Under the pieces are notes generated by a model that did no database searches, was not told the DNA's origin, and was given only the letters and a program-made list of their open reading frames with translations. From NCBI GenBank assembly GCA_963810005.1, contig CAWELY010000011.1, positions 122,458 through 186,457 on the forward strand: a stretch of DNA of 64,000 bases, written 5' to 3'. The stretch is from an uncultured Acidobacteriota bacterium (GTDB lineage Bacteria; Acidobacteriota; Terriglobia; UBA7540). Shown one piece after another: positions 9,975 to 59,200 of the stretch (position 1 is its first letter; each line of letters begins with the position of its first letter). The position numbers and the translations under genes are program-made.

Positions 9975-10898
9975 ATGTGGATTGAAATGGTGGCAGCAGA
10001 CCTGGAAAGACTTTGGCGCGTCGGCCTCAAGCGCGTCCGCCCGGGGGACATCGTGCTTTCCAGCGGGCGCTACCTCTTCGAGACGGAAGTGCACGCCTAT
10101 GCCTTTTCGATTGCGGCCAACGCCCTTCTTTCCTTTTTCCCCTTCAACCTGATTTTGCTGGCCATCTGCCGGCGCTGGCTGCACTGGGAGAGTGCTTACC
10201 AGACGATTCTCCAGCTTTTGAGCGTAAACCTCCCCAACGGGGGGGATTTTGTGATTCGCAATTTGGTGGCCGTGGTTCACGGGCGGCCGCGGTTGCAAAT
10301 GGTATCCGTGCTCATGCTTTTTTTCACCAGTTCGGGGGTGTTTCTGCCGCTCGAGATCGCCCTCAATAAAGTCTGGGGGTTCCCGCGCAATCGCACTTTC
10401 CTGAAGAATCAAGGAATGTCTTTTGTCCTCGCCCTGGTCTCCGGCGTGCTCGCCCTTTGCTTCATCCTGGCGATTACTCCCCTGCGGGCGGCGATAACTT
10501 TCTTGATCGGCTGGATACCTTCCCCGAGTTTCCTCACGATGGTGTCGCACCTTGCCCTGGAGATTGCCTCCGTGCCCCTCGTGGCTTCGCTTTATTTCAT
10601 GATTTACTATTTTCTGCCCAACGGGAAAGTCCCCATGGCGCGGGTTCTCCTCGCCGCCATCGCCGCGGGAATCCTAACGGAGGTGGGGAAGGTGCTCTAT
10701 ATCCTGACCCTCCCGATGTTCCATTTCCGGGAAGTTTACGGACCCTTTGAGACGTCGGTGGCGCTGCTTTTTTGGGCGTATGCGGGCTCCCTGATTCTGC
10801 TCTTCGGGGCGCACCTCTCGGCGCACCTGTTTGTGTCGAATGAGGTCACCCGGGAGGTTGAGGCGGTTGGAAGTGAGGAGCTGGAAGAGAGCAGCTAA
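9975..10898 (+). CDS. YihY/BrkB-family integral membrane protein
   Basis: 307-aa multi-TM ORF with YihY-like motifs (FSIAANALLSFFPF, LNKVWGFPRNRTF, WAYAGSLILLFGA). Its TAA stop is partly supplied by the IS630 end. Confidence 0.8.
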   Translation: MWIEMVAADLERLWRVGLKRVRPGDIVLSSGRYLFETEVHAYAFSIAANALLSFFPFNLILLAICRRWLHWESAYQTILQLLSVNLPNGGDFVIRNLVAVVHGRPRLQMVSVLMLFFTSSGVFLPLEIALNKVWGFPRNRTFLKNQGMSFVLALVSGVLALCFILAITPLRAAITFLIGWIPSPSFLTMVSHLALEIASVPLVASLYFMIYYFLPNGKVPMARVLLAAIAAGILTEVGKVLYILTLPMFHFREVYGPFETSVALLFWAYAGSLILLFGAHLSAHLFVSNEVTREVEAVGSEELEESS

Positions 10899-12016
10899 GT
10901 TGACTACACTAAATATTGCGCGTAATTCGGTTTGGGTATACCATCCCTTGTATGGCCCGACCGAGTTTGCTCAAGCTGTCGGAAGCGGACGAGCGCCAGT
11001 TGCGGGAAGCCGCGGCCGACTCTCCTGATGCAGATTTTCGTGATGCCTGTCGCGCCGTTCTGAGCCTGGCCCGAGGGGCGACGCGCCCGCAGGTGGGGGA
11101 GCAGTTGCGCGTGCATCCGGCCACGGTCGGGCGTTGGGCGGCGCGCTATCGCCAGCGGGGGCTCGCCGGGCTTCGGGGCCCGGAGCACGATGGCCGCGGA
11201 CGACCGCGCCGCTTGCAGGTGGAGCATTTGCAATGGCTGCGGCAAACGGTTCTTACCTCGCCCCGGAAATTGGGTTATGCTTTCACCGCCTGGACCTTGC
11301 CGAGGCTGGCGGAGTTCTTGCAGCGGCAGACGGGGGTAACGGTGCAACCGCACTACCTGGGACGGCTGCTGCACCGCATGGGCATTGCCCGGAAACGTCC
11401 CAAGCGGGTGCTGGAAGGCAAACGCGATGAGGCCGCCCATGACCGCGCCAAAACTGAGTTGCAAGCCCTCAAGAAGCATCTGGGGCGGCGGAAAAGGACC
11501 GTCGTGATCAGCCAGGACGAAACCGAATTTCATCTTTACCCTTACCTGGTGGCGATCTGGTCGGTGGTGGGCAGTCCCCAACCGGAAGTGCGCACGCCGG
11601 GGAAGAATCAGAAGCGCGTCTTGTATGGAGGCCTGAACCTGAAAACCGGACACCTCACCAGCCACTGGGCGGCGACGAAAAGCGGTGCGCATTTTGTCGA
11701 ATATCTGGAAACGCTCTTGCATGATTATCCCGACCAGAAGATCCTCATGATCGCCGACAACGGCAGCTTCCATCATACGCTGAAAGTGGACGCCTTCGTG
11801 AAGGACCACCGCAACCGTTTGGAGATCAAATGGCTGCCTCCGTATTGCCCCGACCTGAACGACATCGAGCGCACCTGGAGACGGCTCAAGGCCAGCCATG
11901 CCTCCAACTTCCTGTTTAACTCCCTCGACGAGTTGGTCGATAACGTGCGCCAAGGCATTGGCGAACTGAATTCCACGGTCGCTACCAATTAAGAGCATTA
12001 TTTAGTGTAGTCAACT
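10898..12016 (+). mobile_element. IS630-family insertion sequence, apparently intact, with TA target-site duplication
   Basis: 18-nt perfect terminal inverted repeats AGTTGACTACACTAAATA (10898-10915 and 11999-12016, reverse complement). TA flanks both ends at 10896-10897 and 12017-12018. A single transposase ORF lies inside. Confidence 0.85.
10952..11992 (+). CDS. IS630-family DDE transposase
   Basis: MARPSLLKLSEADERQL.. N-terminal HTH region, then a catalytic region with ISQDETEF, IADNGSFH and LPPYCPDLNDIERTW. An alternative TTG start lies at 10916. Confidence 0.85.
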   Translation: MARPSLLKLSEADERQLREAAADSPDADFRDACRAVLSLARGATRPQVGEQLRVHPATVGRWAARYRQRGLAGLRGPEHDGRGRPRRLQVEHLQWLRQTVLTSPRKLGYAFTAWTLPRLAEFLQRQTGVTVQPHYLGRLLHRMGIARKRPKRVLEGKRDEAAHDRAKTELQALKKHLGRRKRTVVISQDETEFHLYPYLVAIWSVVGSPQPEVRTPGKNQKRVLYGGLNLKTGHLTSHWAATKSGAHFVEYLETLLHDYPDQKILMIADNGSFHHTLKVDAFVKDHRNRLEIKWLPPYCPDLNDIERTWRRLKASHASNFLFNSLDELVDNVRQGIGELNSTVATN

Positions 12017-12116
12017 TAGAAGCTAGAAGTTAGAATTTAGAAGGTAGAAGTTAGAAGGGAGATGCTAACCTCCTTCCTCCAGCTTCTAGCTTCTAACTCC
12101 TAGCTCCTAAATTCTG
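12017..12116. repeat. heptamer word array hairpin (TAGAAGN words and their complement)
   Basis: TAGAAGC TAGAAGT TAGAATT TAGAAGG TAGAAGT TAGAAGG, then a ~15-nt spacer, then the imperfect reverse-complement run (CAGCTTCTAGCTTCTAACTCCTAGCTCCTAAATTCTG). Confidence 0.6.
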
Positions 12117-20919: not shown

Positions 20920-22146
20920 ATGAGTTTCTGGAGTCGAAGGCAGTGGTTGCGCGGCGCTGTTGCGGCAATGGTGGGAAGCCGCGCGGGTGTGTCGCCCCGG
21001 CCGGCGCGGGCGGGGGCAAGCCCCGGGAAATCCGCGGAGGAACGCAAATCGGCGCTGGACCTGAATGATTTCGCGCCCCGGAGCATGCTCCACGTACCGG
21101 CGACAAAGGTTCCGCGCTCGAAGTTCCCGGTGATTGACGTTCATACCCACCTGTCCTTCCAGGCCGCAGGCCAGCATGGGGTTGACCTTGGAGAAAAGAT
21201 GACGTACCCAATGCCGCCGGAGGAAATTTTGGCGGTTATGGATCGCAAAAACCTTCGTACCATGGTGGACCTTACGGGCGGACACGGCCAAGGCTTGGTC
21301 GAAGTCATCGCGAAGTGGCAGACCGCCTATCCGGGGCGCTTCCTGGTGTTTACCGAACCGTGGTGGGAGCGGACGAATGAGCCCGGCTACGCCCAATTCC
21401 AGGCGGATGAGATCGAGCGTGCCCACCAGGCCGGCGCCAAGGGATTAAAGGTGCTGAAAACGCTGGGGCTGTACTTGCGCGAGAATGTTACCACGGGGAA
21501 TCTGGTGAAGCTGGACGATCGGCGCTTTGATCCGATGTGGGAAGCCTGTGGCGCGTTCGGCATGCCCGTGTCGATTCACACTTCCGACCCCGACGCGTTT
21601 TTCCTGCCCATCGACCGCTTCAATGAGCGGTTCGAAGAGTTGAACAACCATCCCAGTTGGTCGTTCTACGGCCACGACTTTCCCGGCAAAATGGATTTGC
21701 TCGAGGCGCGCAACCGCGTGTTTGCCCGCCACCCCAAGACGCAGTTCATTGCCTTGCACGTCGGGAATCGGGGAGAAGACTTGGGCTACGTTTCCGAATG
21801 CCTGGACCGCTTGCCCAACATGCACGTCGAGACGGCCGCGCGGCTCAACGAACTCGGCCGGCAGCCGCGCCAGGCGCGCAAATTCTTCGAAAAGTATCAG
21901 GACCGCATCATGATGGGAACGGACGCGATTCCGCACGGCATGGAGACTCCGCAGCAGATTTTCGGCGATGAGCTTTACGAGATCTATTTCCGCTTCCTGG
22001 AGACGGAAGACGAGTATTTCGACTATGCCCCGGCGCCGGTTCCTCCCCAGGGGCGCTGGAGAATCTCCGGCCTGGGCCTGCCGGACGAAATTCTGCGCAA
22101 GGTCTATTACCAAAATGCCGCGCGCCTGCTGAATCTGGGTTCGTGA
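20920..22146 (+). CDS. metal-dependent amidohydrolase (amidohydrolase_2 TIM-barrel family) with Tat-like signal
   Basis: GAGGAGGAG precedes the ATG at 20920. MSFWSRRQWLRGAVAAMVG is a twin-arginine signal, followed by VIDVHTHL and the later motifs IHTSDP, ALHVGN and GTDA. Confidence 0.8.
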   Translation: MSFWSRRQWLRGAVAAMVGSRAGVSPRPARAGASPGKSAEERKSALDLNDFAPRSMLHVPATKVPRSKFPVIDVHTHLSFQAAGQHGVDLGEKMTYPMPPEEILAVMDRKNLRTMVDLTGGHGQGLVEVIAKWQTAYPGRFLVFTEPWWERTNEPGYAQFQADEIERAHQAGAKGLKVLKTLGLYLRENVTTGNLVKLDDRRFDPMWEACGAFGMPVSIHTSDPDAFFLPIDRFNERFEELNNHPSWSFYGHDFPGKMDLLEARNRVFARHPKTQFIALHVGNRGEDLGYVSECLDRLPNMHVETAARLNELGRQPRQARKFFEKYQDRIMMGTDAIPHGMETPQQIFGDELYEIYFRFLETEDEYFDYAPAPVPPQGRWRISGLGLPDEILRKVYYQNAARLLNLGS

Positions 22147-22186
22147 CCCGCAAGCGCTAACTCAATTGAAAAACAGCCAGTTAGGT

Positions 22187-22260
22187 TGGCTGGGAGGCAG
22201 GGATTCGAACCCCGATACGCAGATCCAGAGTCTGCAGTCCTACCGTTAGACGACCTCCCA
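22187..22260 (-). tRNA. tRNA-Gln: tRNA-Gln (anticodon CTG), 74 nt with encoded CCA
   Basis: The reverse complement is TGGGAGGTCGTCTAACGGTAGGACTGCAGACTCTGGATCTGCGTATCGGGGTTCGAATCCCTGCCTCCCAGCCA. It has a 7-bp acceptor stem, an anticodon stem GCAGA/TCTGC with loop CTCTGGA, and a GTTCGAATC T-loop. Confidence 0.9.
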
Positions 22261-22360
22261 GTGAGGCGTCATTATAGAAGTAAACGGGCGGCCACGCGCT
22301 TGTCAAGGCTTCTTTTCTAAACTCCTTGACGCGCATTGCCGGGCAAGATAGGCAGGGTGC

Positions 22361-23506
22361 TCAGAACAATCGGAAGCTGACTTCCACCATGACTCGCACC
22401 GGCACCGGCGTGCCGTTTCTCAGGGCAGGTTTGAACTTCCACGTCCTTACGGTTTCGACCGCTTTTTCATCCAAGCCGAGACCGAGGGGCTTTACGACTC
22501 GGCAATCCGTGACGGCCCCGGAGGCATCGACGATGATCCACAGCACGACCGTGCCCTGGTACTTCGCCTTGCGAGCTTCCTCGGAGTACGCGGGATCGGG
22601 CTTGTAAATGGGGATCGGCGCGCTCACGCCGCCCCCCACGCTATAAACTCCGCCGCCCACGCCGCCACCTTCGCCGGGACCAAGGCCGCCGCCTTTGCCG
22701 GAACCAATTCCCCCGCCTTCTCCGCTGCCGATGCCGCCGCCAAATCCCGGGCCGTTCGAGGGGGGGCCGACCACTCCGTTGGGATCACCCCAATGGCATG
22801 TTGGCAGCTCATTTGCGGGAGCTTCAATTCCGGCGGCCCCAGCAGCGTAGGCGCAACCTGAAGCTGCGGGTTCGGTGTTGGGAATCACCGCCATGGGCGG
22901 CGCGAGCTGCATCTTGGCAAACTTGGGAATGGCGCCTTTCGACGCCGGGGTCGGCGAGCGATCTCCACCGCCTCCACCGCCTCCGGCCTTCTTGCCTCTC
23001 GGTCGGGAGTCAATCGGCCGAGGTAGGGTGAGATATCCACGACCTCGGTTCTGGTGGCGGCCTTCACGGGCTGCCACATGCGGGAGAGGATGTAGGGCAG
23101 CAACAGGAGGGTCAGGGCGATGGTGTGCACCAGCACGGAATTGACCCAGGAGCCGCTTGCATCCGATAGTCGCGCCAAATGTCGGGAGGGTACGGCCGGT
23201 TCTTAAAGATCAGCGAGCCCGCCAGTTCGCCCAGGGCAAACCCGGCGATCACTCCCATGAAGCAGGCCGGCGTCTCGCCGCCAGAACCAGCCGCCCGCTC
23301 CCAAGACCATGGCAAGCGCGAACGCGACAAAGCGCGCGCTTTTCCTGCTGCCCATAGTTGTAAATTCCGATCGGGTCGCGAGGCTTTTCAAATGCCACCT
23401 TGATCTGGGAGGGGAGATCCATGAACCACGGGCGCATGTCCGTGGCCGGCAGCTTGGCTTCGCCGCGATAGTATTGCGCGGGCACCGTCACCTTCGGCTC
23501 GCGCAA
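22361..23506 (-). pseudogene. TonB-family energy transducer, N-terminal half frameshifted several times
   Basis: The C-terminal TonB domain is intact (PIYKPDPAYSEEARKAKYQGTVVLWIIVDASGAVTDCRVVKPLGLGLDEKAVETVRTWKFKPA). A Gly/Pro-rich linker precedes it. The TM segment SWVNSVLVHTIALTLLLLPYIL (ORF 22885-23178) and upstream pieces lie in other frames. Confidence 0.7.
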
Positions 23507-28428: not shown

Positions 28429-29381
28429 CATTCCTTCGGCGGTTTCAGCAGTTCGCGCTTCAGCGCTGGGTTGCGGCTGGTCCAGTCGCCGGGGCGGTCG
28501 TGGTCCGTGGCGTACTGCTGGCGCACGGCTTCCAGCTTGGAGTCCATCTCATCCAGGAAACTGACCACCATGGCCTCGGCAAACATCGGTTCCTTGGGCG
28601 AGCCGAACTCCAGCTTGCCGTGATGGGAAAGAATAATGTGCTCGAGTTCGTCCTTGAGTTCGGCAGGGAAGTCGGGGATCTGGCTGAATCTTCGCCTGCA
28701 CCATTTCCAGCGCCATGGTGATATGCCCGATCAGTTGTCCGCGCGTGGAGTAGCGGAAACCGCGGGTGAAACTCAGTTCTTCCGTCTTGCCCATATCGTG
28801 GAGCACCAGGCCGGCCACCATCAAGTCGCGCCGCAGCCAGGGATAATGATCCGCCACGCGATCGGCCAGGGCGACGAGCGACGACACATGTTCCAAGAGG
28901 CCGCCCAGAAAGGCGTGGTGATAGCTCATCGCCGCGGGCGCCAGCTTGTACTTTTCCGCCATGGGCGGGTCTTCCAGAATGCTCAGCAGCAGAGCGCGCA
29001 GCGGACCGTCGCTCATGCGGCGCACGCGCTCCAGCAACGCGGCGTACATCTCCTCCGGGTCGCGCTGGGTGCGGGGAAGATAATCGAACAGGTTCACTTC
29101 TTCGGGCGCGCAAAGCGTGATCTTCCGAATGCGAAGTTGCGGCGTGCCGCGATAGCTTTCCACGTGCCCTTCCACCTGCACGATGTCGTCAGCTTCAAAG
29201 GCGGAGTGGTGCGTTCGGAGTAGTCCCAGAGCTTGGCGGAAATGACGCCCGTGGTATCTTGCAGGCTGAGGTCCAGATAGGCGGAGCCATTACTGGTGAT
29301 CTTACGTTCTTTGGATTGGACCAGAAAGGTGCTGCGCACCGGTGAGTCCGGCGTGAGGTCCTTGACAAAGGTCTGCTTCAT
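28428..29381 (-). pseudogene. OB-fold plus HD-domain nuclease (YhaM-like 3'-5' exoribonuclease family), two frameshifts
   Basis: The N-terminus MKQTFVKDLTPDSPVRSTFLVQSKERKITSNGSAYLDLSLQDTTGVI is the OB fold. The HD part is AMSYHHAFLGGLLEHV..LVLHDMGK. The restored tail is ILSHHGKLEFGSPKEPMFAEAMVV..PALKRELLKPPKE*. Confidence 0.7.
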
Positions 29382-30413
29382 TGAGTTCTTTTCGGCGGTT
29401 AGCGCCGCGCCCGGCGTTATCTTCGCCGGTGTCAATGTATCCCGGCGCCATAAAGATGTAACTGTCTTTGCGAAGTTGGGTCAGATATTCGCGCAGCTTG
29501 GGCTCCATGCGCTGGTTGTAGAGCATCTCCTGAACGCGCGATTCAACTTCTTCAAACTTGGGGATGCCGGGGCTGAAACGTTCCAGAAGCCTCAGGATCA
29601 TGTAGCCGTTCTTGGTTTGAAGCGACGTCGGTATATTCGTTGATATCGAGCTTGCTCGATGGCCGCGAGCGATTGCCGGCGCCACGCGTGCTGGTTTTCA
29701 TTGGAGCCGATGTCTCCGCCCTGAGTCAACACTAGGCCCGTCGGAATATTTCTTCACCACCTCGCTAAACTTGCGCGCCGCCCTTCAGTTCCGCCTCCGC
29801 GTCCTTGGCGCGTTTCTCCGCCTCCTCCGGCTTGTACTTCTCGGTGGAAATCAGGATTTCCGCGAGGTGGACCATGCCCTCCGATTTGAAATCGTCCTTG
29901 TGCTGATTGTAATATTTCCGCGCATCTTCCCGCGTCACGACGATGCGGGAGCCGACATCGCGGCTGATGACTTCCTGCATCAGGAGTTGGCGGCGGATCT
30001 GGTCTTTGAAGTCCTCCCAATTAACTGCCTTGTTGTTCCGCGTCCTTTTGCAGGTCTTCGATCGTCGCAAGGTTATCCTGCTTGCGCATTTGATCCAGCT
30101 TCTTGATGAGTCCGTGTCCACATTGATATCTTCGTCTTTGGCCTTTCTGGACCATCAGCGACTGGTCAATCAGGTTGCGCAGAAGGTTCTTGCTTTCATC
30201 ATTCAATTTGGCTTCGAGGTCGGCGCCGGAGTATTGCTGGGCAAGCTCGTCGCGAAGCTTGTCTCTTTCCCGTTCAAACTGGCGCTGGGTAATGATTTCA
30301 GCTGTTGACGCGCGCGATGATGCGTTCCACCACGTGGGCGGCCCGCAGCCTGGGGCGCCGCAAAAGTTGCCGCCAGGATGGCGATGTGCCAAAATTTTGA
30401 GCGTTCGTTTCAT
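29302..30413 (-). pseudogene. SurA/PpiD-like periplasmic chaperone with parvulin PPIase domain, many frameshifts
   Basis: Signal-like start MKRTLKIL at 30413. The SurA N-domain pieces are IITQRQFERERDKLRDELAQQY and NLLRNLIDQSLMVQK. The parvulin part is VHLAEILIS. The tail GYMILRLLERFSPGIPKFEEVESRVQEMLYNQRMEPKLREYL is spread over at least 4 frames. Confidence 0.65.
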
Positions 30414-30419
30414 GGTTTT

Positions 30420-30555
30420 CTCCAGCTGACAGCCGACAGCTAACAGCTCCGGCAGCTAACAGCCGACAGTTTACAGCTCGTACAGCCAACAGCTTTATTG
30501 AGCCAAGCTCTAGCCAGCCGTTACTGTAAGCTGTCGGCTGTGAGCTGTTAGCGCC
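30420..30555. repeat. heptamer word array hairpin (CAGCYRA words)
   Basis: CAGCTGA CAGCCGA CAGCTAA CAGCTCC..CAGCTAA CAGCCGA CAGTTTA CAGCTCG TACAGCCAA CAGC, then the complementary CTGTAAGCTGTCGGCTGTGAGCTGTTAGC. It lies between the SurA-like gene start and the mfd end. Confidence 0.65.
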
Positions 30556-30571
30556 AACTTCTAGGCGTATC

Positions 30572-33500
30572 TTAAGTCTGCCGCGCGTGCAATTCCTGCA
30601 AGACGTTTTGGACCTGGGTCAGCAGGTTGCCCTCGCGGTCGCGCCCGCGGAAGCGCAGGACGCGGTCCGGGCGGAAGCTGGCATCGCGCCGCCGCCGCAC
30701 AAACTGCGCCAGCCGCTGGGGATCAACCGGCGCCTGCTCATGGAACTTGATCCAGATTTCATCCCCTTTGCGCTCAACCGTTTGTACCAGCAAGCGCTCC
30801 GCCGCGCTCTTCAGCAAGGCGTAATCAAGCAGGTTGGAAACCGAAGGGGGAATGGGGCCGAAGCGGTCGGCCAGCTCGGCTTCCAGGTCGGCCCGCTCGG
30901 TAGGGCGTGGCGGCGCTGGAAATGCGCTTGTACATGCGCAGGCGCTGGTTCTCGTCGGGAATGTAGGAGTCGGGAATTTTGATGTCGAGGCCCAGGTTGA
31001 GCGAGGTGCGCACTTCAATCTTGGCTGGGAGCGCCCCGCAATTCCTCCACCGTCTGCTCCAGCATCTTGAGGTAGAGGTCAATGCCCATGGCGTTCAGGT
31101 GGCCATGTTGCTCGGCCCCCAACAGATTGCCGGCGCCGCGCAATTCCAGGTCCAGCGCCGCCAGGCGAAAGCCCGCGCCGAGATCGGAGAATTCCTTCAT
31201 CGCCGCGAGCCGCCGCCGGGCGATGGGCGTCAGGGTGTCTTCCGACCCGATCAGGAAAAAGGCGTAGGCGCGGCGGTTCGAGCGGCCCACGCGCCCGCGA
31301 AGCTGGTAGAGGTCGGCAAGGCCGAAGCGGTCGGCGTGATTCACGATGATGGTGTTGGCGCGGGGGATGTCCAGGCCGTTTTCGATGAGCGCCGTGGCCA
31401 CCAGCACATCGTATTCAGCCGCGCATGAACTTCAGCATCGCCCGCTCGAGGTCTTTCTCGCCCATCTGGCCGTGCGCCACGCCCAGGCGCGCCGTGGGCA
31501 GCAGGCGCTGCAAAAGCGCGGCCATCTGGAAAATCGATTCCACCCGGTTGTGCACGAAGAAGACCTGGCCCTGCCGTTGCATCTCCTGCATGATGGCGGA
31601 CTGGATGAGCGCCTGGTTGAAAGGCGCGACGGTGGTTTGAATGGCCAGGCGGCCGCGGGGCGGGGTCTCGATGACGGAAAGGTCGCGCAATCCGCCGAGC
31701 GACATGTGCAGCGTGCGCGGAATGGGCGTTGCCGACATGGTCAGGACATCCACGCCGGATTTTAATTTCTTCAGCTTCTCTTTGGCGGCCACGCCGAAGC
31801 GCTGCTCCTCGTCCACAATCAGCAATCCCAGGTCGCGCCAGTGCACATCCTTGGAGAGCAGCCGGTGCGTTCCGATCAGGATGTCCACGCGGCCGGCTTC
31901 CGCGTCGGCCATGATTTTCTTCTGCTCCGCCGCCGTGCGAAACCGGCTGAGCATTTCCACGCGCACGGGGAAAGGCGCCATGCGCTGCGCGGAAGGTGGT
32001 GAAGTGCTGGAAGGCCAGCACCGTCGTGGGGGCCAGCACCGCCACTTGGCGGCCGTCCTGAATCACTTTGAATGCGGCGCGCATGGCGAGCTCGGTCTTG
32101 CCATACCCCACGTCGCCGCAGAGCAGCCGGTCCATGGGCTCGGGGCTTTCCAGGTCGCGCTTGATGTCGGCAAGGGCGGTGAGCTGGTCGGGCGTCTCCT
32201 CAAATTCAAACGCGTCTTCGAACTCGCGCTGCCAGGGCGTGTCGGGGGAGGCGGCAACCCCGCCGCGCATTTTGCGTTCGGCGTAAAGTTGCAAAAGCTC
32301 CTGCGCCATGTCGCGCAAGGCGCGTTTGACGCGCGTCTTGGTGCGCTCCCAAGTGGCGCCCCCCAGCCGGTCGAGGGGAGGTTTGGCGCCTTCGTGGGAG
32401 CGGTACTTTTCCACCAGGTCCAGGCGCTCGAGCGGCACGTACAGCTTGGCCTCGTCCTGAAACGTCAGCAGCATGAAATCGCGCGACGCGCCCGCCACGG
32501 AGATTTGCCGCAGACCTTGATAAATGCCGATGCCGTGATCGATGTGGACGACGTAGTCGCCGACTTTCAGATCGCTGAGGTCGGAGATAAAGCTGGAGAT
32601 CCCGGAACGCTCGCGCCGCCCGCGCGCTGCCCAGTCAAAGCCACCGAACAAGTCCGCGTCCGCCAGCCACAATTGCCTCAGCTCGGGAAAGGCCACGCCT
32701 TCGCGAATCTCGCCCCGGGCAATGAGCACACGAGCGGTATCGAGCGATTGGGTGATCGGGTCAATTCTATTGCCGCTTGTCGATTGCCGATTTTCGATTG
32801 GTTCAATCGTCAATCGACCATCGGCAATCGACAATGAGCTCCCCGATCTCTCGATCACCCGATCATACGGAATCTCGTAGTCCTTCAAAATCTCCCGCAG
32901 ACGATCCACCTTGCCACTGGTGGGGACGACGAAAATGACGGACTCGCCGCGCTTCACCCGACTGCGAAGATCTTCGACCAACTCCTTGACCCTCCCTTGA
33001 TACTTGGGAGGAGGTTGGGTGAGGAGAATCGGGCCATCAGAGGAATCGGGTGATCGGTTGATCGGGTGATCGGGTGAATGAACTGCTCGCTTGTCACTCG
33101 TCACTCGCCACTCGTCACTGCTCTCAAGAACTGCTCGCTCATCACTCGTCACTCGCCACTTGTCACTACTTTCACGCCACTCGTCACTGCTCTCAGCGCC
33201 TTCGGGCGGGAAGTATAAGTCGCCGCCGATAACCACCGCTTGCGAGCTGGTTTCCGCGGCCGGCGTGACGTTCTCAAGGCCCAATTCTTTGAGCGAAATT
33301 TGTGGAACGCTCTGGATGGCTTGAAGGAATTCTGGTTCGGTCAGATAAACTTCCCGGGGTTCTGGGCGGGGCGGAACGATGTCGCGAACTTCCTCGAAGC
33401 TTGCCGTCAGGCTCTCGATCGTAGGCGAAATTTGGGCGCGGCGGTCGAGGAGTTCGTCCCAAACCAGCACCGGACGATCCAGGAGGGAAAACAGCGTGTG

Positions 33501-53616: not shown

Positions 53617-53714
53617 GTCTCTATATTCCCACGATGCTCGAAATCGTGGAACATATTTTTCTCAGCGCAGAATTATCCCGCGCCCCGCGGGATCCTTTTC
53701 ACAGGTTCTTACGA

Positions 53715-54110
53715 TCAGGGGTTCACCGTCAGCGTCGGCTGGCGCAGACTCCTGCTCTTTCGGAGTCTGCGATCCCGAAGGGACTTCTCATAAGTTGAAC
53801 TCAACCCATCCGATCCATGCGGAGAATTGACGCATCCTGCCAATAGTAGAACCTCCAGCTTGACCACGGCCCGTCCCCGGGGGAACTCACCAGCCCGCGC
53901 GTCACCGGGTTGTTGTGCAGAACCCAGCCGACGAGCAGAAAGCCATTCCTGCCGCACCTCGTTCAGTTCGTAGCCCGAAGCTGTAGGTCCGGCTCTTTGG
54001 ACAAAGCCGCGCCGAAAGCGATCGGAGAGGAAAAGGGGCGTGCGGCGATAGGTGCTGGTGGTGATGAATTGGAGTTCGCCGGGACTGTAAACGCGGTGGT
54101 AGAAGGGCAT
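53715..54110 (-). pseudogene. internally deleted REP-associated tyrosine transposase (RAYT) copy
   Basis: The first ~33 residues (MPFYHRVYSPGELQFITTSTYRRTPLFLSDRFRR) match the intact copy at 54792 exactly. The 3' end nucleotides match the RAYT C-terminus (..WQDASILRMDRM). The middle, including the HUH motif, is missing. Confidence 0.75.
53743..53771. repeat. REP hairpin H1 (CGCAGACTCC-loop-GGAGTCTGCG)
   Basis: 10-bp perfect stem within the conserved context GGCTGGCGCAGAC...GTCTGCGATCCCGAAGGGAC. Confidence 0.7.
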
Positions 54111-54168
54111 GGCGCAGGAGAGTATACTCTCGACGGTGCGGGGCCGGAAGAGAACGTCCCTTCGGGAT

Positions 54169-54196
54169 CGCAGACACCAAACGACGGGTGTCTGCG
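54169..54196. repeat. REP hairpin H2 (inverted orientation)
   Basis: GTCCCTTCGGGATCGCAGACACC..GGTGTCTGCGCCAGCC, the reverse complement of the H1/H3 context. Confidence 0.7.
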
Positions 54197-54226
54197 CCAG
54201 CCGGCGAATTCATGAGAGGAAGCCGA

Positions 54227-54568
54227 ATGACGCCTCTGCGTCTTTTCATTTTGTATAACACCGGGATCTTTGCCTACATGGCTTGGCGACTCAATGAAGG
54301 CATGCCAGAGGGAAGAGCCATCAAGATGGGCCTTTTGTTAGCCATCCTGGCCAACCTCGGGGTTGTTGTCCAGTGGTTTCACACAAGGGACAGGGCAAAG
54401 GGTGTAACGCCGGGACGGTCTTCGTCACGCCCGTGGGGGCACGGCTTGCGTTTTGCCTTGATGGTCTTGATCGTCTGGCGGTTGTCTGGCGCCGCCGACC
54501 TCGCCTTCTTTGTGATATATGGATTCGTCATTACAGTAACCTTCTGGCTCTGGGACAGGTTGGCATGA
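54227..54568 (+). CDS. small multi-TM hypothetical membrane protein between the two RAYT copies
   Basis: MTPLRLFILYNTGIFAYMAW..MGLLLAILANLGVVVQWF..LRFALMVLIVWRLSGAADLAFFVIYGFVITVTFWLW has about 4 hydrophobic segments. The track ORF starts at 54188. No family recognised. Confidence 0.4.
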   Translation: MTPLRLFILYNTGIFAYMAWRLNEGMPEGRAIKMGLLLAILANLGVVVQWFHTRDRAKGVTPGRSSSRPWGHGLRFALMVLIVWRLSGAADLAFFVIYGFVITVTFWLWDRLA

Positions 54569-54705
54569 CCCCGCTCGATGAATCCGAGCAGTAATCGCCG
54601 CAGAGCGAGTGGGAGGCCCCAGTAATCTGCAGGGAGGCATGATGGAACCATGCGGGGAACGGGGAAGCGGCTACGCTCAAAGAACTTGGGCAAAAGGCCG
54701 GCTGG

Positions 54706-54733
54706 CGCAGACACCCGCCTTTTGGTGTCTGCG
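54706..54733. repeat. REP hairpin H3
   Basis: GGCTGGCGCAGACACCCGCCTTTTGGTGTCTGCGATCCCGAAGGGAC, in the same orientation as H1. Confidence 0.7.
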
Positions 54734-54791
54734 ATCCCGAAGGGACGTTCTCTTCCGGCCCCGCGCCGTCGAGAGTATACTCTCCTGCGCC

Positions 54792-55343
54792 ATGCCCTTC
54801 TACCACCGCGTTTACAGTCCCGGTGAACTCCAATTCATCACCACCAGCACCTATCGCCGCACGCCACTTTTCCTCTCGGATCGCTTTCGGCGCTGCTTTG
54901 TCCAGAGGCTGGACGAGGTGCGGCAGGAATGGCATTTCCTGCTCGTCGGCTGGGTTCTGATGCCCGAGCATTTTCATATGCTGATCAGGCCCGAGCCCGC
55001 CGAAACCACTCCCCTGATTATGAAGGGGCTCAAGGAGGAATCGGCCAAGCGCATCATCAGAACGCTTCGGGAAAACCTTCAGTATCCTTGGTGCCGGAAG
55101 ACGCTCGCCAGGCTGCGGCTGCCCTCCACGGTTCACGATGAATCCCACTACCGTCTCTGGCAGCGCCGCTTTTACCCCTTCAATGTCTTCTCCGAAAACA
55201 AATTCCAGCAGAAATTGGACTACATGCACAACAACCCGGTGACGCGCGGCCTGGTGAGTTCCCCCGGCGACTGGCCGTGGTCAAGCTGGAGGTTCTACTA
55301 TTGGCAGGATGCGTCAATTCTCCGCATGGATCGGATGCGTTGA
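54792..55343 (+). CDS. REP-associated tyrosine transposase (RAYT, IS200/IS605-like Y1 HUH transposase)
   Basis: 183-aa intact ORF. The HUH motif is in LMPEHFHMLIRP and the catalytic Tyr region is KLDYMHNNPVTRGLV. REP hairpins flank it in inverted orientation. Confidence 0.85.
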   Translation: MPFYHRVYSPGELQFITTSTYRRTPLFLSDRFRRCFVQRLDEVRQEWHFLLVGWVLMPEHFHMLIRPEPAETTPLIMKGLKEESAKRIIRTLRENLQYPWCRKTLARLRLPSTVHDESHYRLWQRRFYPFNVFSENKFQQKLDYMHNNPVTRGLVSSPGDWPWSSWRFYYWQDASILRMDRMR

Positions 55344-55372
55344 GTTCAACTTACGAGAAGTCCCTTCGGGAT

Positions 55373-55400
55373 CGCAGACTCCCAAAGGCAGGAGTCTGCG
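55373..55400. repeat. REP hairpin H4 (inverted orientation)
   Basis: GTCCCTTCGGGATCGCAGACTCCCAAAGGCAGGAGTCTGCGCCAGCC. Confidence 0.7.
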
Positions 55401-55487
55401 CCAGCCGGCCCGCTCGGCGAGTCCCTCATCTGGGGGCGTCATCCAATACCTAACTGCCTTGGGGGCAGCAAATTGGATGTTCGATGA

Positions 55488-57019: not shown

Positions 57020-57747
57020 ATGGCGTACCCAAGCATTCCAAAACGCGTAGCGGCGGTCAGGGAGGTAATAATCGTGCAACCGGCCGAAGCTGAAGGTCCG
57101 CCGCACTTAGGACTTGGTGATGGATTCTCGCTTCTGGAGATGATGGCGGTGATCGAAGACCAGTGGCGAGTGATTAGTGGCCAGTGGCGAGCAGGAAAGG
57201 CGGAAGAACAGTGGCGATTGACGAGCGGAAAGAGCAGGTCACAGGGAAAAGGTTACGGGGAAGAGAAGCAAGAGAGAATAGTGACAAGTGACGAGCGGAA
57301 ACCCAAAGCTGAACTACAGTGACGGGTGGCAAGTGACGAGTGACGAGCGGAATGACAACTCGCGTGGCTTCTCGCTTCTGGAGATGATGACGGTGATCGA
57401 CGCTGATCCTCATCCTGGCGACCTTCGCCATGCCCATTTACCATACGGTGGTCAGTGCGGGCGCGCGAAGCCACGCTGCGCGAGGACCTCTTCACGCATG
57501 CGCTCCCAGATCGACCGCTTCACCCACGACAACGAGCGCGGCCCCGCCTCACTCGACGAATTGGTGGATAAGGGTTACATGGGGGCCATCCCCACCGACC
57601 CCTTTACCGGCTCGAACGAAACCTGGCAAGTCGAAACCGAGGACACGTCCCTCTCCCTCGATGATTCCGCCCCGCTGGGAATCGTGGACGTCCACAGCGG
57701 CTCGCGAGGACAATTCGCTCGACGGCACGCCCTACAGTAGTTGGTAG
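57020..57747 (+). pseudogene. type II secretion / type IV pilin-like pseudopilin (prepilin N-terminal methylation motif), split by a repeat block and frameshifted
   Basis: The GFSLLEMM(A/T)VI motif occurs twice (57122 and 57366). After the second copy, the restored frames give TLILILATFAMPIYHTVVSA.AREATLREDLFT.MRSQIDRFTHDNERGPASLDELVDKGYMGAIPTDPFTG, which is GspG-like. There are 3 frame changes within ~100 nt. Confidence 0.6.
57157..57365. repeat. GTGGCGAG/GTGACGAG heptamer word block lying between the two 35-nt pilin duplicates
   Basis: CAGTGGCGAGTGATTAGTGGCCAGTGGCGAGCAGG..AGTGACAAGTGACGAGCGG..GTGACGGGTGGCAAGTGACGAGTGACGAGCGG. The same word family is found inside mfd at 33085-33195. Confidence 0.65.
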
Positions 57748-57956
57748 CGCAGGACCCGCTCTCCGGTCCTGCGGCTTTTCCCGCGGTCCGGGGTCCGAAG
57801 TCCGGAGTCGCAAGAACCGGGGCGAGTGGCAAGCAGGAAAGCCAGAAGAACAGGGCCGCGTTCCACGAAAGGGAACTACATCCTTAGCCCGTCAACTGAC
57901 GGATGAAACCGGAGGAAGCCCGGAAAATCAGGTTCCGGCCCGGAAGGGGCCAAACC

Positions 57957-58452
57957 GGTGGCACGGGCGTCTCGCCCGCGAAGGGTCACGGCCAGGATGG
58001 CCGTGCCACAACATTTCCCCGGTGGCACAGGCGTTCCGCCCGTGAAGGGTCACGGCCAGGGCGGCCGTGGCACAACATTTCCCCGGTGGCACGGGCGTCT
58101 CGCCCGCGAGCAGTCACGGCCAGGATGGCCGTGCCACAACATTTCCCCGGTGGCACGGGCGTCTCGCCCGCGAGCAGTCACGGCCAGGATGGCCGTGCCA
58201 CAACATTTCCCCGGTGGCACGGGCGTCTCGCCCGTGAAGGGTCACGGCCAGGACGGCCGCGCCACAACATTTCCCCGGTGGCACGGGCGTCTCGCCCGTG
58301 AAGGGTCACGGCCAGGACGGCCGTGCCACAACATTTCCCCGGTGGCACGGGCGTCCCGCCCGTGAAGGGTCATGGCCAGGACGGCCGTGCCACGTCGGGC
58401 AGGGCCCGTCACCCGAGGCTCTTACGGGCACGGGCAGGATGCCCGTGCCACT
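57957..58452. repeat. tandem array of ~7 units of a 64-bp repeat, plus a degenerate terminal unit
   Basis: Units start at 57957, 58021, 58085, 58149, 58213, 58277 and 58341, an exact 64-nt period. Each unit is GGTGGCACGGGCGTCTCGCCCG.GA.GGTCACGGCCAGGATGGCCGTGCCACAACATTTCCCC with two hairpins. Confidence 0.9.
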
Positions 58453-58632
58453 TCCTCCCGCGTGACACACTTCCCCACATCGGTTATCGACAGTGCGGGG
58501 TGAGGAGATGAATCAATTTGCCGGCTTCGAAAGGTTTTCAATGGCCCGATGTCCCGATGAACCGATGGCCCGATCCCCAGACCCGTGACGAGGGGCAAGG
58601 GCAGAGGGCAGATTCAAGTCTCTGACCTGTAG

Positions 58633-58652
58633 GGGCGCTTCGCGAAGCGCCC
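58633..58652. repeat. perfect 20-nt palindrome GGGCGCTTCGCGAAGCGCCC
   Basis: Read directly. Related to 18571-18600. Confidence 0.6.
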
Positions 58653-59200
58653 TGATCACCCCCGGAGCGCATTTTCGCTGAGGTTAAGGTGCGGAAGTTA
58701 GCGGGCCTTATTGTCCGAAGATGGAAGGGCGGGGCTTTACAGGGTCCGAAAAAACTCGCCTGCGCCGTGTTTCCGGGCTTTTTGTTCTCAATATTGAGGG
58801 AAGCGACATATTATCCCTCGTCCCAATAGGCGGGTACTAAGCACCGATTCGTCCCTTTTCGTGGGCAATCGTGGGTTATCAACCCAAAGGTCCGCTCAAG
58901 GGGTGATTGGAATCGCACTTTGGAGCACCGTATTTCACTTTTAGGCCTGCACTCGCTAGAACCGCTTAGCACCCTCTGGCCACCATCTTCGGGCACCTGC
59001 CCACTGTCCACTTCCTACTTGCCCTTCGAGTGCGCAATGCGCGTTCCCGCCATTCCCTGCAAGGCTTCAGGAGTCCCTTCCGGGGAGTTTCGGTTATCGT
59101 CGGGTTCAGGTGAGATGGCCCGATGACCCGATGGGCCGATTCTCTTCGGCTTCCTTCTGACTATGCAATCCACGGCGAATTGAGTACTCTGAAAGCAGGT

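Follow-up and report, generated by a model that had tools for sequence, protein, structure and literature searches.

Two pilin N-terminal coding sequences on either side of a heptamer word block in an uncultured Acidobacteriota bacterium

Described systems closest to the locus

Recombination in the 5' coding sequence of type IV pilin genes is known from Neisseria, where it takes the form of gene conversion between pilE and pilS, and from Pseudomonas aeruginosa, where pilA alleles are replaced. In polymorphic-toxin loci (CDI and Rhs), displaced orphan fragments are left when a new module recombines at a conserved junction. Heptamer repeats are known as the STRR sequences of heterocystous cyanobacteria, and the palindromic elements of Rickettsia are read as protein. 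The target-site duplications made by insertion sequences and MITEs are typically 2 to 14 bp long and of fixed length, and the elements have defined ends.

In this study, we analyzed a window of 64,000 nucleotides on contig C11 of a metagenome-assembled genome from Terriglobia (Acidobacteriota; 7.0 Mb in 44 contigs), the nearest public relatives of which are peat and soil MAGs. The window contains a pair of 35-nt direct repeats in a pilin-like gene, and the closest known phenomena are type IV pilin 5'-end recombination and the orphan fragments of polymorphic-toxin loci. As in the pilins of Neisseria and P. aeruginosa, there are several gene copies, the apparent exchange boundary is conserved N-terminal coding sequence, and the gene bodies appear to be swapped between loci or strains. 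Unlike in Neisseria, in which the silent cassettes are 3' pieces, the leftover here is a 5' fragment with start signals; the paralogous bodies are homogenized (97% identical) and not diversified, no G4 element or dedicated recombinase is seen, and the proteins are orphan GspG-like pseudopilins. The likeness to CDI and Rhs loci is that a short conserved coding stretch would act as the homology handle and that the displaced old piece remains beside the new gene, whereas the displaced piece here is a 5' end that lies upstream, i.e., a mirror image, and has no toxin or immunity function.

Other resemblances are more distant. Direct repeats around an inserted segment, together with an empty site in a relative, recall the target-site duplications of insertion sequences and MITEs, but the repeat is 32 to 39 nt long, there are no terminal inverted repeats, and none of the other word blocks has such a repeat; the segment has neither defined ends nor an enzyme, and similar duplications do not occur at unrelated sites. 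The genome is rich in heptamer arrays and repeat words serve as coding sequence, as with the STRR and Rickettsia elements, although the phylum and the words are different and the words form a conserved leader instead of an in-frame loop insertion. Matching sequences around a noncoding gap, with an early stop in four of five loci, also recall the bypassing of phage T4 gene 60, whose gap of 50 nt contrasts with the variable gap of 107 to 215 nt here. Translational bypassing was rejected for the present locus on account of the variable gap length, the difference in frame, the separate and conserved start and leader of the downstream copy, and the existence of unsplit or single-module relatives.

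Anatomy of the repeat pair and the pilin-like gene

Exactly two occurrences of GGMTTCTCGCTTCTGGAGATGATGRCGGTGATCGA were found in the window, both on the + strand (57122-57156 and 57366-57400) and separated by a spacer of 209 nt. The copies are identical at 33 of 35 positions (36 nt at 94% when the preceding T is included), and no such pair is expected in shuffled sequence. The repeat pair described in an earlier, sequence-only reading of this DNA is therefore borne out, and so is the prepilin motif that it assigned to both copies, each of which encodes GFSLLEMM(A/T)VI.

The upstream part of the locus on the + strand has a Shine-Dalgarno-like GGGAGG (57060-57065) and a GTG start codon (57074-57076), with an ATG at 57020 as an alternative start. 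These signals, read from the sequence as the 5' end of a probable leftover of the resident pilin, are equally placed in the paralogs C33 and C42 and in the intact gene of the related genome G005. The prepilin leader that follows (VQPAEAEGPPHLGLGD, 57074-57121, + strand) is of the L1 type and shares homology with that of the uninterrupted gene in G005 (VAKPEGRARSGLSG) and with those of many intact relatives (V.AE.EGRPHSGLGEG). Copy 1 (57122-57156, + strand) encodes the first 11 to 12 mature pilin codons (GFSLLEMMAVIE) with no pilin body behind it; the frame that is open from copy 1 enters the word block and ends at a stop codon at 57320-57322. The word block (57157-57332, + strand) is purine rich, consists of AGTGRCG heptamers and GGAAAG-type spacers, and varies between paralogs and assemblies. 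It is followed by the GTG start and the T-type prepilin leader (V/M)TSDERNDNSR of the real gene (57333-57365, + strand), which are in frame with copy 2 (57366-57400, + strand), the N-terminus of a complete pilin-like gene. As delimited by alignment to intact paralogs and relatives, the mature coding region spans 57366-57747 on the + strand and comprises 125 codons and a TAG stop codon (57745-57747).

After the stop codon, a terminator-like hairpin followed by a T-run (57748-57780, + strand) can be recognized by eye, and the genome holds many copies of it. The remainder of a segment of approximately 2 kb in common with the C17 and C33 loci (91 to 99%) extends over 57781-59058 on the + strand and contains a downstream word block, a 64-nt tandem array (57955-58393, + strand), and approximately 660 nt without an evident gene. 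The array and the gene-free DNA accompany the pilin unit in each case (57955-59058; C17:27086-28453; C33:460540-462488). The segment as a whole is present at three loci with 91 to 95% identity, and insertions of approximately 1.1 and 3 kb interrupt the C33 and C17 copies. An Rfam search of the downstream segment gave no family above threshold, with only sub-threshold mraW matches in the 64-nt array, and a promoter scan detected no sigma-70-like site. Reading the 5' region as an RNA element was rejected: folding of 57060-57420 gave z = +0.6, and no conserved RNA structure was found in that region.

An intact paralog matches PF07963 with 28.4 bits (cutoff, 21.2) and TIGR02532 with 26.5 bits (cutoff, 16.3), and the prepilin motif G-F-x-x-x-E is present in both window copies as GFSLLE. 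The score for the GspG equivalog TIGR01710 is 29 bits against a cutoff of 88.85, with only residues 11 to 75 matched; relatives carry the JGI annotation "general secretion pathway protein G." Two tandem pilins and GspF-, GspE-, and PilM-like genes (assigned from sequence motifs) form a core operon elsewhere on the contig (C11:399-404 kb), and the window gene is thus an extra, orphan pseudopilin copy. Approximately 20 hydrophobic residues follow the motif in C17b, C33, C42, and the allele L192. These residues are absent from the window copy as assembled, in which an extra base at about 57398 turns SLILILATLAMP... into DADPHPGDLRHA....

Three frame changes within about 100 nt had been noticed downstream of copy 2. 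The frame changes are present in the assembled sequence and the first three do lie within 100 nt, but their total is four. Alignment to three paralogs and five relatives shows one additional base in the window at each of four places, about 57398 (or 57402), 57453, 57498, and 57704. Together, the first three add up to +3 and bring back the original frame, so that one frame of 150 codons stays open, with DADPHPGDLRHAHLPYGGQCGRAKPRCARTSSR in place of the hydrophobic helix, and the fourth alters the C-terminus. When the four bases are set aside, the window gene is free of stops and has a dN/dS of approximately 0.3. The three intact paralogs differ mostly synonymously and are under purifying selection (dN/dS of approximately 0.1), which indicates that the downstream (T-type) genes are functional.

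Every extra base is located at a site of substitution between related alleles, and the window has both alternatives side by side, e.g., GGCTC-G-C-GAGG versus GGCTCGGAGG or GGCTCCGAGG. This arrangement is not expected from precise recombination, and a consensus of mixed haplotypes or paralogs could yield it; the breaks in frame may come from errors in the consensus or from recent decay. The window body as a simple mix of L192-like and C42-like alleles was rejected because 12 variable sites are unique to the window. General indel noise of the assembly was also dropped as an explanation. Outside the pilin body there is approximately one indel per 2 to 3 kb relative to other assemblies, and the 12 copies of a 1124-nt IS630-family element, one of which is at window positions 10896-12019 and one between the two C17 pilin units (22117-23240), are nearly identical and almost gap-free, with 10 of them at least 99.8% identical and without gaps. 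Four indels clustered within 380 nt are thus a local feature. The frame breaks in this assembly are not to be taken as pseudogenes without read support. Another gene with several breaks is mfd (window 29300-32400, - strand), in which the helicase and TRCF domains are in different frames, the DEAD domain is only partly in a long frame, and the TRCF domain is in 30575-31078.

Paralogous loci, relatives, and independent assemblies

The layout of an N-terminal fragment, a word block, and a full N-terminus with its pilin gene is present at all five GFSLLEMM loci of the genome (window, C17a, C17b, C33, and C42), although only about 87 codons remain of the pilin gene at C17a. A Shine-Dalgarno sequence, a GTG codon, and a leader of 14 to 17 residues precede the fragments of the window, C33, and C42. 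The fragment is followed within a few codons by a stop codon in four of the five loci, and the upstream ORFs differ between loci in end position and length. All five fragments retain an intact GFSLLEMM frame, and the differences among them are mostly synonymous.

Similarity between the loci changes abruptly along this layout. In the 100 nt that precede copy 1, identity is 65 to 67% among the window, C33, and C42, and C17 is unrelated to the others, whereas identity between loci of the source genome is 84 to 97% in copy 1, 89 to 97% in the pilin body, and 97 to 99% in the 150 nt after the stop codon (window, C17b, and C33). The step is exactly at copy 1. Between-locus identity is 89 to 99% from copy 2 to approximately 1.3 kb downstream, and the segment of high similarity extends through the 64-nt array to about 59058. 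From this profile, old and diverged loci appear to share a young segment, the left edge of which is in the N-terminal coding sequence. Within a locus, copies 1 and 2 are identical at 26 to 30 of 32 positions and are no closer to each other than the N-termini of different loci are. The 33 of 35 identical positions in the window are therefore the ordinary identity between N-termini of the subfamily (84 to 97%) and do not imply a duplication event at the site.

About 190 related loci from genomes and metagenomes were compared. The gene L005 of genome G005, the closest uninterrupted relative, has its L1-type leader joined directly to GFTLLELMMVMTLILIL, and L033, L111, and L117 are uninterrupted genes with a C17-type upstream region. 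In the protein census, intact proteins with an L1-type leader include P0017, P0027, P0031, P0036, P0045, and others, and the C17-type leader MINV..RRKLAEG, which matches the C17b fragment, is found in the intact protein P0039. The C17a fragment is identical over 32 nt to the N-terminus of the intact L033 gene. Because relatives have intact, uninterrupted genes with the leader of the fragment, an empty site exists; the alignment of the window with L005 shows a single gap of 244 nt, i.e., one repeat copy and the block. The pilin body of the window groups as sister to that of the unsplit L005 in the body tree.

At L032, L034, and L116, T-type genes are immediately preceded by the word block and leader and lack a fragment, and leaders of the MTSDERKDNSRG type are common in the protein census. 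L119 has the order block, leader, fragment, block, leader, gene, and L113 has three N-terminal copies and two homologous blocks, with copy 1a degraded. L124 and L120 are also split, and L031, which was found by gapped local alignment, has a decayed fragment with a 7-nt deletion. JGI metagenome contigs of other organisms carry the split layout too. The junction GGTGAT(0-5 nt)AAGAACAGTGRCGAG is common to the five loci of the source genome and to L113, L119, L124, L120, and L031. Word blocks that start with AGAACAGTGRCGAG are also found after pilin stop codons.

The copies are arranged head to tail and their number differs between related loci, as in a tandem module of variable number: one, two, or three N-terminal copies occur among closely related loci (L111/L112, L119, and L113). 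A single module is present in L116, L032, and L034, two N-termini are present in L119 and the loci of the source genome, and three are present in L113. The body tree places split loci in four or more clades, beside unsplit or single-module relatives. The sequence-only reading had allowed that two tandem pilin genes might explain the duplication through their N-termini; this is close to what was found, except that the upstream one is merely a fragment.

Five contigs of the JBLFK* series (L191 to L195) match the source genome at 99 to 100% in the flanks and show the split layout in five independent assemblies; L191, L192, and L193 are from GCA_052916025.1, GCA_052915745.1, and GCA_052915925.1. 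From the end of the beta-propeller gene through the leftover start, copy 1, and the block to the T leader, L192 and L193 are 100% identical to the window, which rules out a misassembled duplication. Both contigs diverge from the window inside copy 2 and continue into different bodies, an intact allele of 151 residues in L192 and a C42-like body in L193. The same 5' region is thus joined to three different bodies across assemblies of the species, and the switch is inside copy 2. In L191, the 5' side of C33 is joined to a C42-like 3' side; L194 corresponds to C17b, and L195 has a block with more 52-nt units. These contigs are consistent with an exchange of bodies at the N-terminus, although the mosaic ones are of limited length, belong to highly fragmented assemblies, and could be chimeras joined across the repeat. 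A 136-nt dispersed repeat in L192 further connects the beta-propeller gene with sequence that is on C17 in the source genome; either the strain is rearranged or the short contigs are chimeric. No unsplit allele of the species was detected in six assemblies, and a protein search with the window leader, a weak negative, gave none either.

Heptamer words and the origin of the second N-terminus

The 209-nt spacer had been described as consisting of heptamer words. Roughly half of it is word-like, and the rest is a purine-rich spacer: 63 of the 209 nt match AGTGACG with at most one mismatch, strict AGTGRCG words cover about a third and loose ones about half, 72% of the bases are purines, and TRF finds two short period-7 arrays. 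Within the spacer block, neither an inverted partner, nor terminal inverted repeats, nor an ORF with a family match was found. The length of the block is between 107 and 215 nt among the five paralogous loci, and the number of 52-nt subunits differs among C17a, C17b, and L195. The view that the word arrays are mobile or recombinogenic accordingly holds insofar as the block is unstable in length and unit number; a mobile array that makes a target duplication is not supported.

In the genome, TRF detects 1695 period-7 arrays, which were merged into 1684 blocks, and the flanks of each block were compared. Direct repeats of at least 20 nt flank blocks only at the pilin loci, in one CRISPR array, and in larger tandem arrays, and repeats in shuffled flank pairs were never longer than 13 nt. 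None of the approximately 1680 other blocks is bracketed by a repeat of unique sequence. Since bracketing is confined to the pilin loci, word blocks do not generally create duplications.

The block does contribute to the gene. Its last two GTGACGA words are coding and provide the T-type pilin with its start codon and its first five leader residues, i.e., the pilin start codon and the leader MTSDERNDNSRG are encoded by the final GTGACGAG words. From 57333, the leader codons GTG ACG AGT GAC GAG CGG AAT GAC AAC TCG CGT read (M)TSDERNDNSR and end before the G|F cleavage site. Gene callers place the start of the intact paralogs and of dozens of relatives at the same leader, MTSDERKDNSRG. The leader of the subfamily, (M/V)TSDERKDNSRG, corresponds to two GTGACGA words and GAGCGGAAAGACAACTCGCGT (window 57333-57347; L032, L034, and L113; proteins P0001-P0053), and GTGACGAGTGACGAG occurs 84 times in the genome. 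A literature search on heptamer arrays in Acidobacteria found nothing relevant, and the encoding of a conserved prepilin leader by genome-wide heptamer words is a new point, if a modest one.

Taken with the anatomy of the locus, these comparisons make it probable that the 35-mers belong to two different pilin 5' ends positioned in tandem, of which they are the N-terminal coding sequences, and that the arrangement was produced by recombination anchored at the N-terminus and not by target-site duplication. The upstream part (57060-57156) would be what is left of a resident pilin that was originally located downstream of the beta-propeller gene, i.e., its ribosome-binding site, GTG codon, L1-type leader, and 11 to 12 mature codons. 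Behind this leftover would stand a complete T-type 5' module (word block and leader MTSDERNDNSRG), followed by the N-terminus and the pilin body. We infer unequal or ectopic homologous recombination as the origin, either as gene conversion or as tandem duplication of a module that comprises the word block, the leader, and the first ~32 nt, with the highly conserved N-terminal coding sequence as the anchor. The same route may have spread the module among the paralogous pilin loci of the lineage, while the word block would keep growing and shrinking by slippage of its 7-nt and ~52-nt units. The pilin would then be translated from the word-encoded GTG, and the leftover start would drive at most a short upstream ORF. 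Some observations do not sit easily with this order of events. The shared junction could reflect one ancient insertion that was later inherited or converted; the intact frames and synonymous differences of the fragments could reflect selection on the upstream peptide and not a recent origin from functional genes; and the lack of an unsplit locus in the species is unexpected if copy 2 is equally likely to be the left anchor of conversion.

The sequence-only reading had proposed an insertion with an unusually long target duplication. In its most explicit form, a mobile word block would have inserted once into a pilin gene with a target duplication of 32 to 35 nt, and the other loci would have arisen by inheritance or conversion. 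The empty site in G005, where the gap is exactly one copy plus the block, the sharp boundaries of the repeat at both ends, and the single junction common to all split loci fit such an event. We nevertheless consider it unlikely and the claim unsupported, since the same layout is present at five loci and the block with the T leader (its last 33 nt) is the normal 5' region of intact genes that have no fragment. Moreover, the 244-nt unit has neither terminal inverted repeats nor an enzyme gene, the approximately 1680 other blocks have no such duplication, the identity of 33 of 35 positions is the background between paralogous N-termini, and the three-copy arrangement of L113 and the order of word block, leader tail, and N-terminus repeated twice in L119 resemble tandem duplication of a module. 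It is about as improbable that the locus is the remnant of a tandem pilin pair that lost its first body and stop codon, with the N-terminus fused to the word block behind the stop. Blocks beginning with AGAACAGTGRCGAG do follow pilin stop codons, the block and the downstream block are 71% alike over 70 nt, and tandem pilins exist in the core operon and at L047. Against this, the sister position of the window body to the G005 gene with the L1 leader assigns the body to the same gene as the upstream leader instead of to a second gene; no relative has two full genes at the locus, and identical endpoints would be required at loci with unrelated upstream regions. Misassembly of the second 35-mer and the block can be almost entirely discounted. 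The region is a multicopy repeat in a metagenome-assembled genome with frame problems elsewhere, but the identical sequence in L192 and L193, the four other loci of the genome with the same architecture, and the JGI contigs from other organisms with the same layout all speak against an artifact.

A functional role of the arrangement is a further alternative. Recombination between the 32- to 35-nt repeats might reversibly fuse and separate a strong L1 start and the pilin body, as in phase variation, or the leftover might be a regulatory upstream ORF. The Shine-Dalgarno sequence, start codon, and GFSLLEMM frame are retained in all five fragments, which differ mainly at synonymous sites; the number of modules and the block length vary among close relatives and assemblies, and deletion between the repeats would yield an in-frame pilin with an L1 leader like that of the G005 gene. 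Such a programmed switch or regulator is doubtful, however, because the six assemblies of the species show only the split state, the protein collection lacks an unsplit product, fragments are decaying in other organisms (the 7-nt deletion of L031 and the degraded copy 1a of L113), the 5' region has no conserved RNA structure, and the upstream ORFs have different ends and lengths. The wider proposal, that the N-terminal 32 to 35 nt and the word blocks form a modular recombination system that exchanges leaders, starts, and bodies, and in which reversible gain and loss of modules switches the start that drives the pilin, is similarly speculative. If it were true, it would be a mechanism of pilin (phase) variation not described in Acidobacteriota and would give the genome-wide heptamer word arrays their first demonstrated function.

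On the preferred reading of two 5' ends in tandem, a copy-number-variable 5' module that leaves leftover gene starts in an acidobacterial pilin family is a second new point of modest weight. The locus shows the heptamer arrays interacting with genes, in that they supply the start codon and part of the leader in one pilin family. The arrays adjoin the recombination boundary at which paralogous pilin 5' ends and bodies would be shuffled, with leftover starts remaining, and the locus offers a concrete, testable case of arrays as tolerated slippage-prone DNA versus promoters of rearrangement. Annotators of these genomes should probably treat pilin starts that look "split" or duplicated, along with upstream mini-ORFs, as leftovers and not as separate genes.

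Word-like sequence was also observed in other contexts. In the core operons of relatives of the same genus (L008-L017) and at C11:399684-399760, word arrays and their reverse complements fill the spacer between the tandem pilins. These arrays form long hairpins and reach the GF codons of the second pilin, and several of the genomes have no obvious in-frame start nearby. At C8:2947-4021 of the source genome, a tandem array has units of ~153 nt, each with a GAAAGGCGGAAGAACAGTGACGAGCGG word segment that resembles the pilin block, and a CRISPR-like array with the 29-nt repeat ATTGTCCCCACGCGCGTGGGGGTGAACCG is located outside the window at C11:259477-263710. Upstream of the pilin locus, window positions 53713-55430 contain an IS200/RAYT-like tyrosine-transposase ORF (54609-55343, motif PEHFHMLI) between nested inverted repeats (53713-53919 versus 55225-55430, 92%; 53918-54205 versus 54697-54959, 86%), and copies of the arms are present on C40 and C42.
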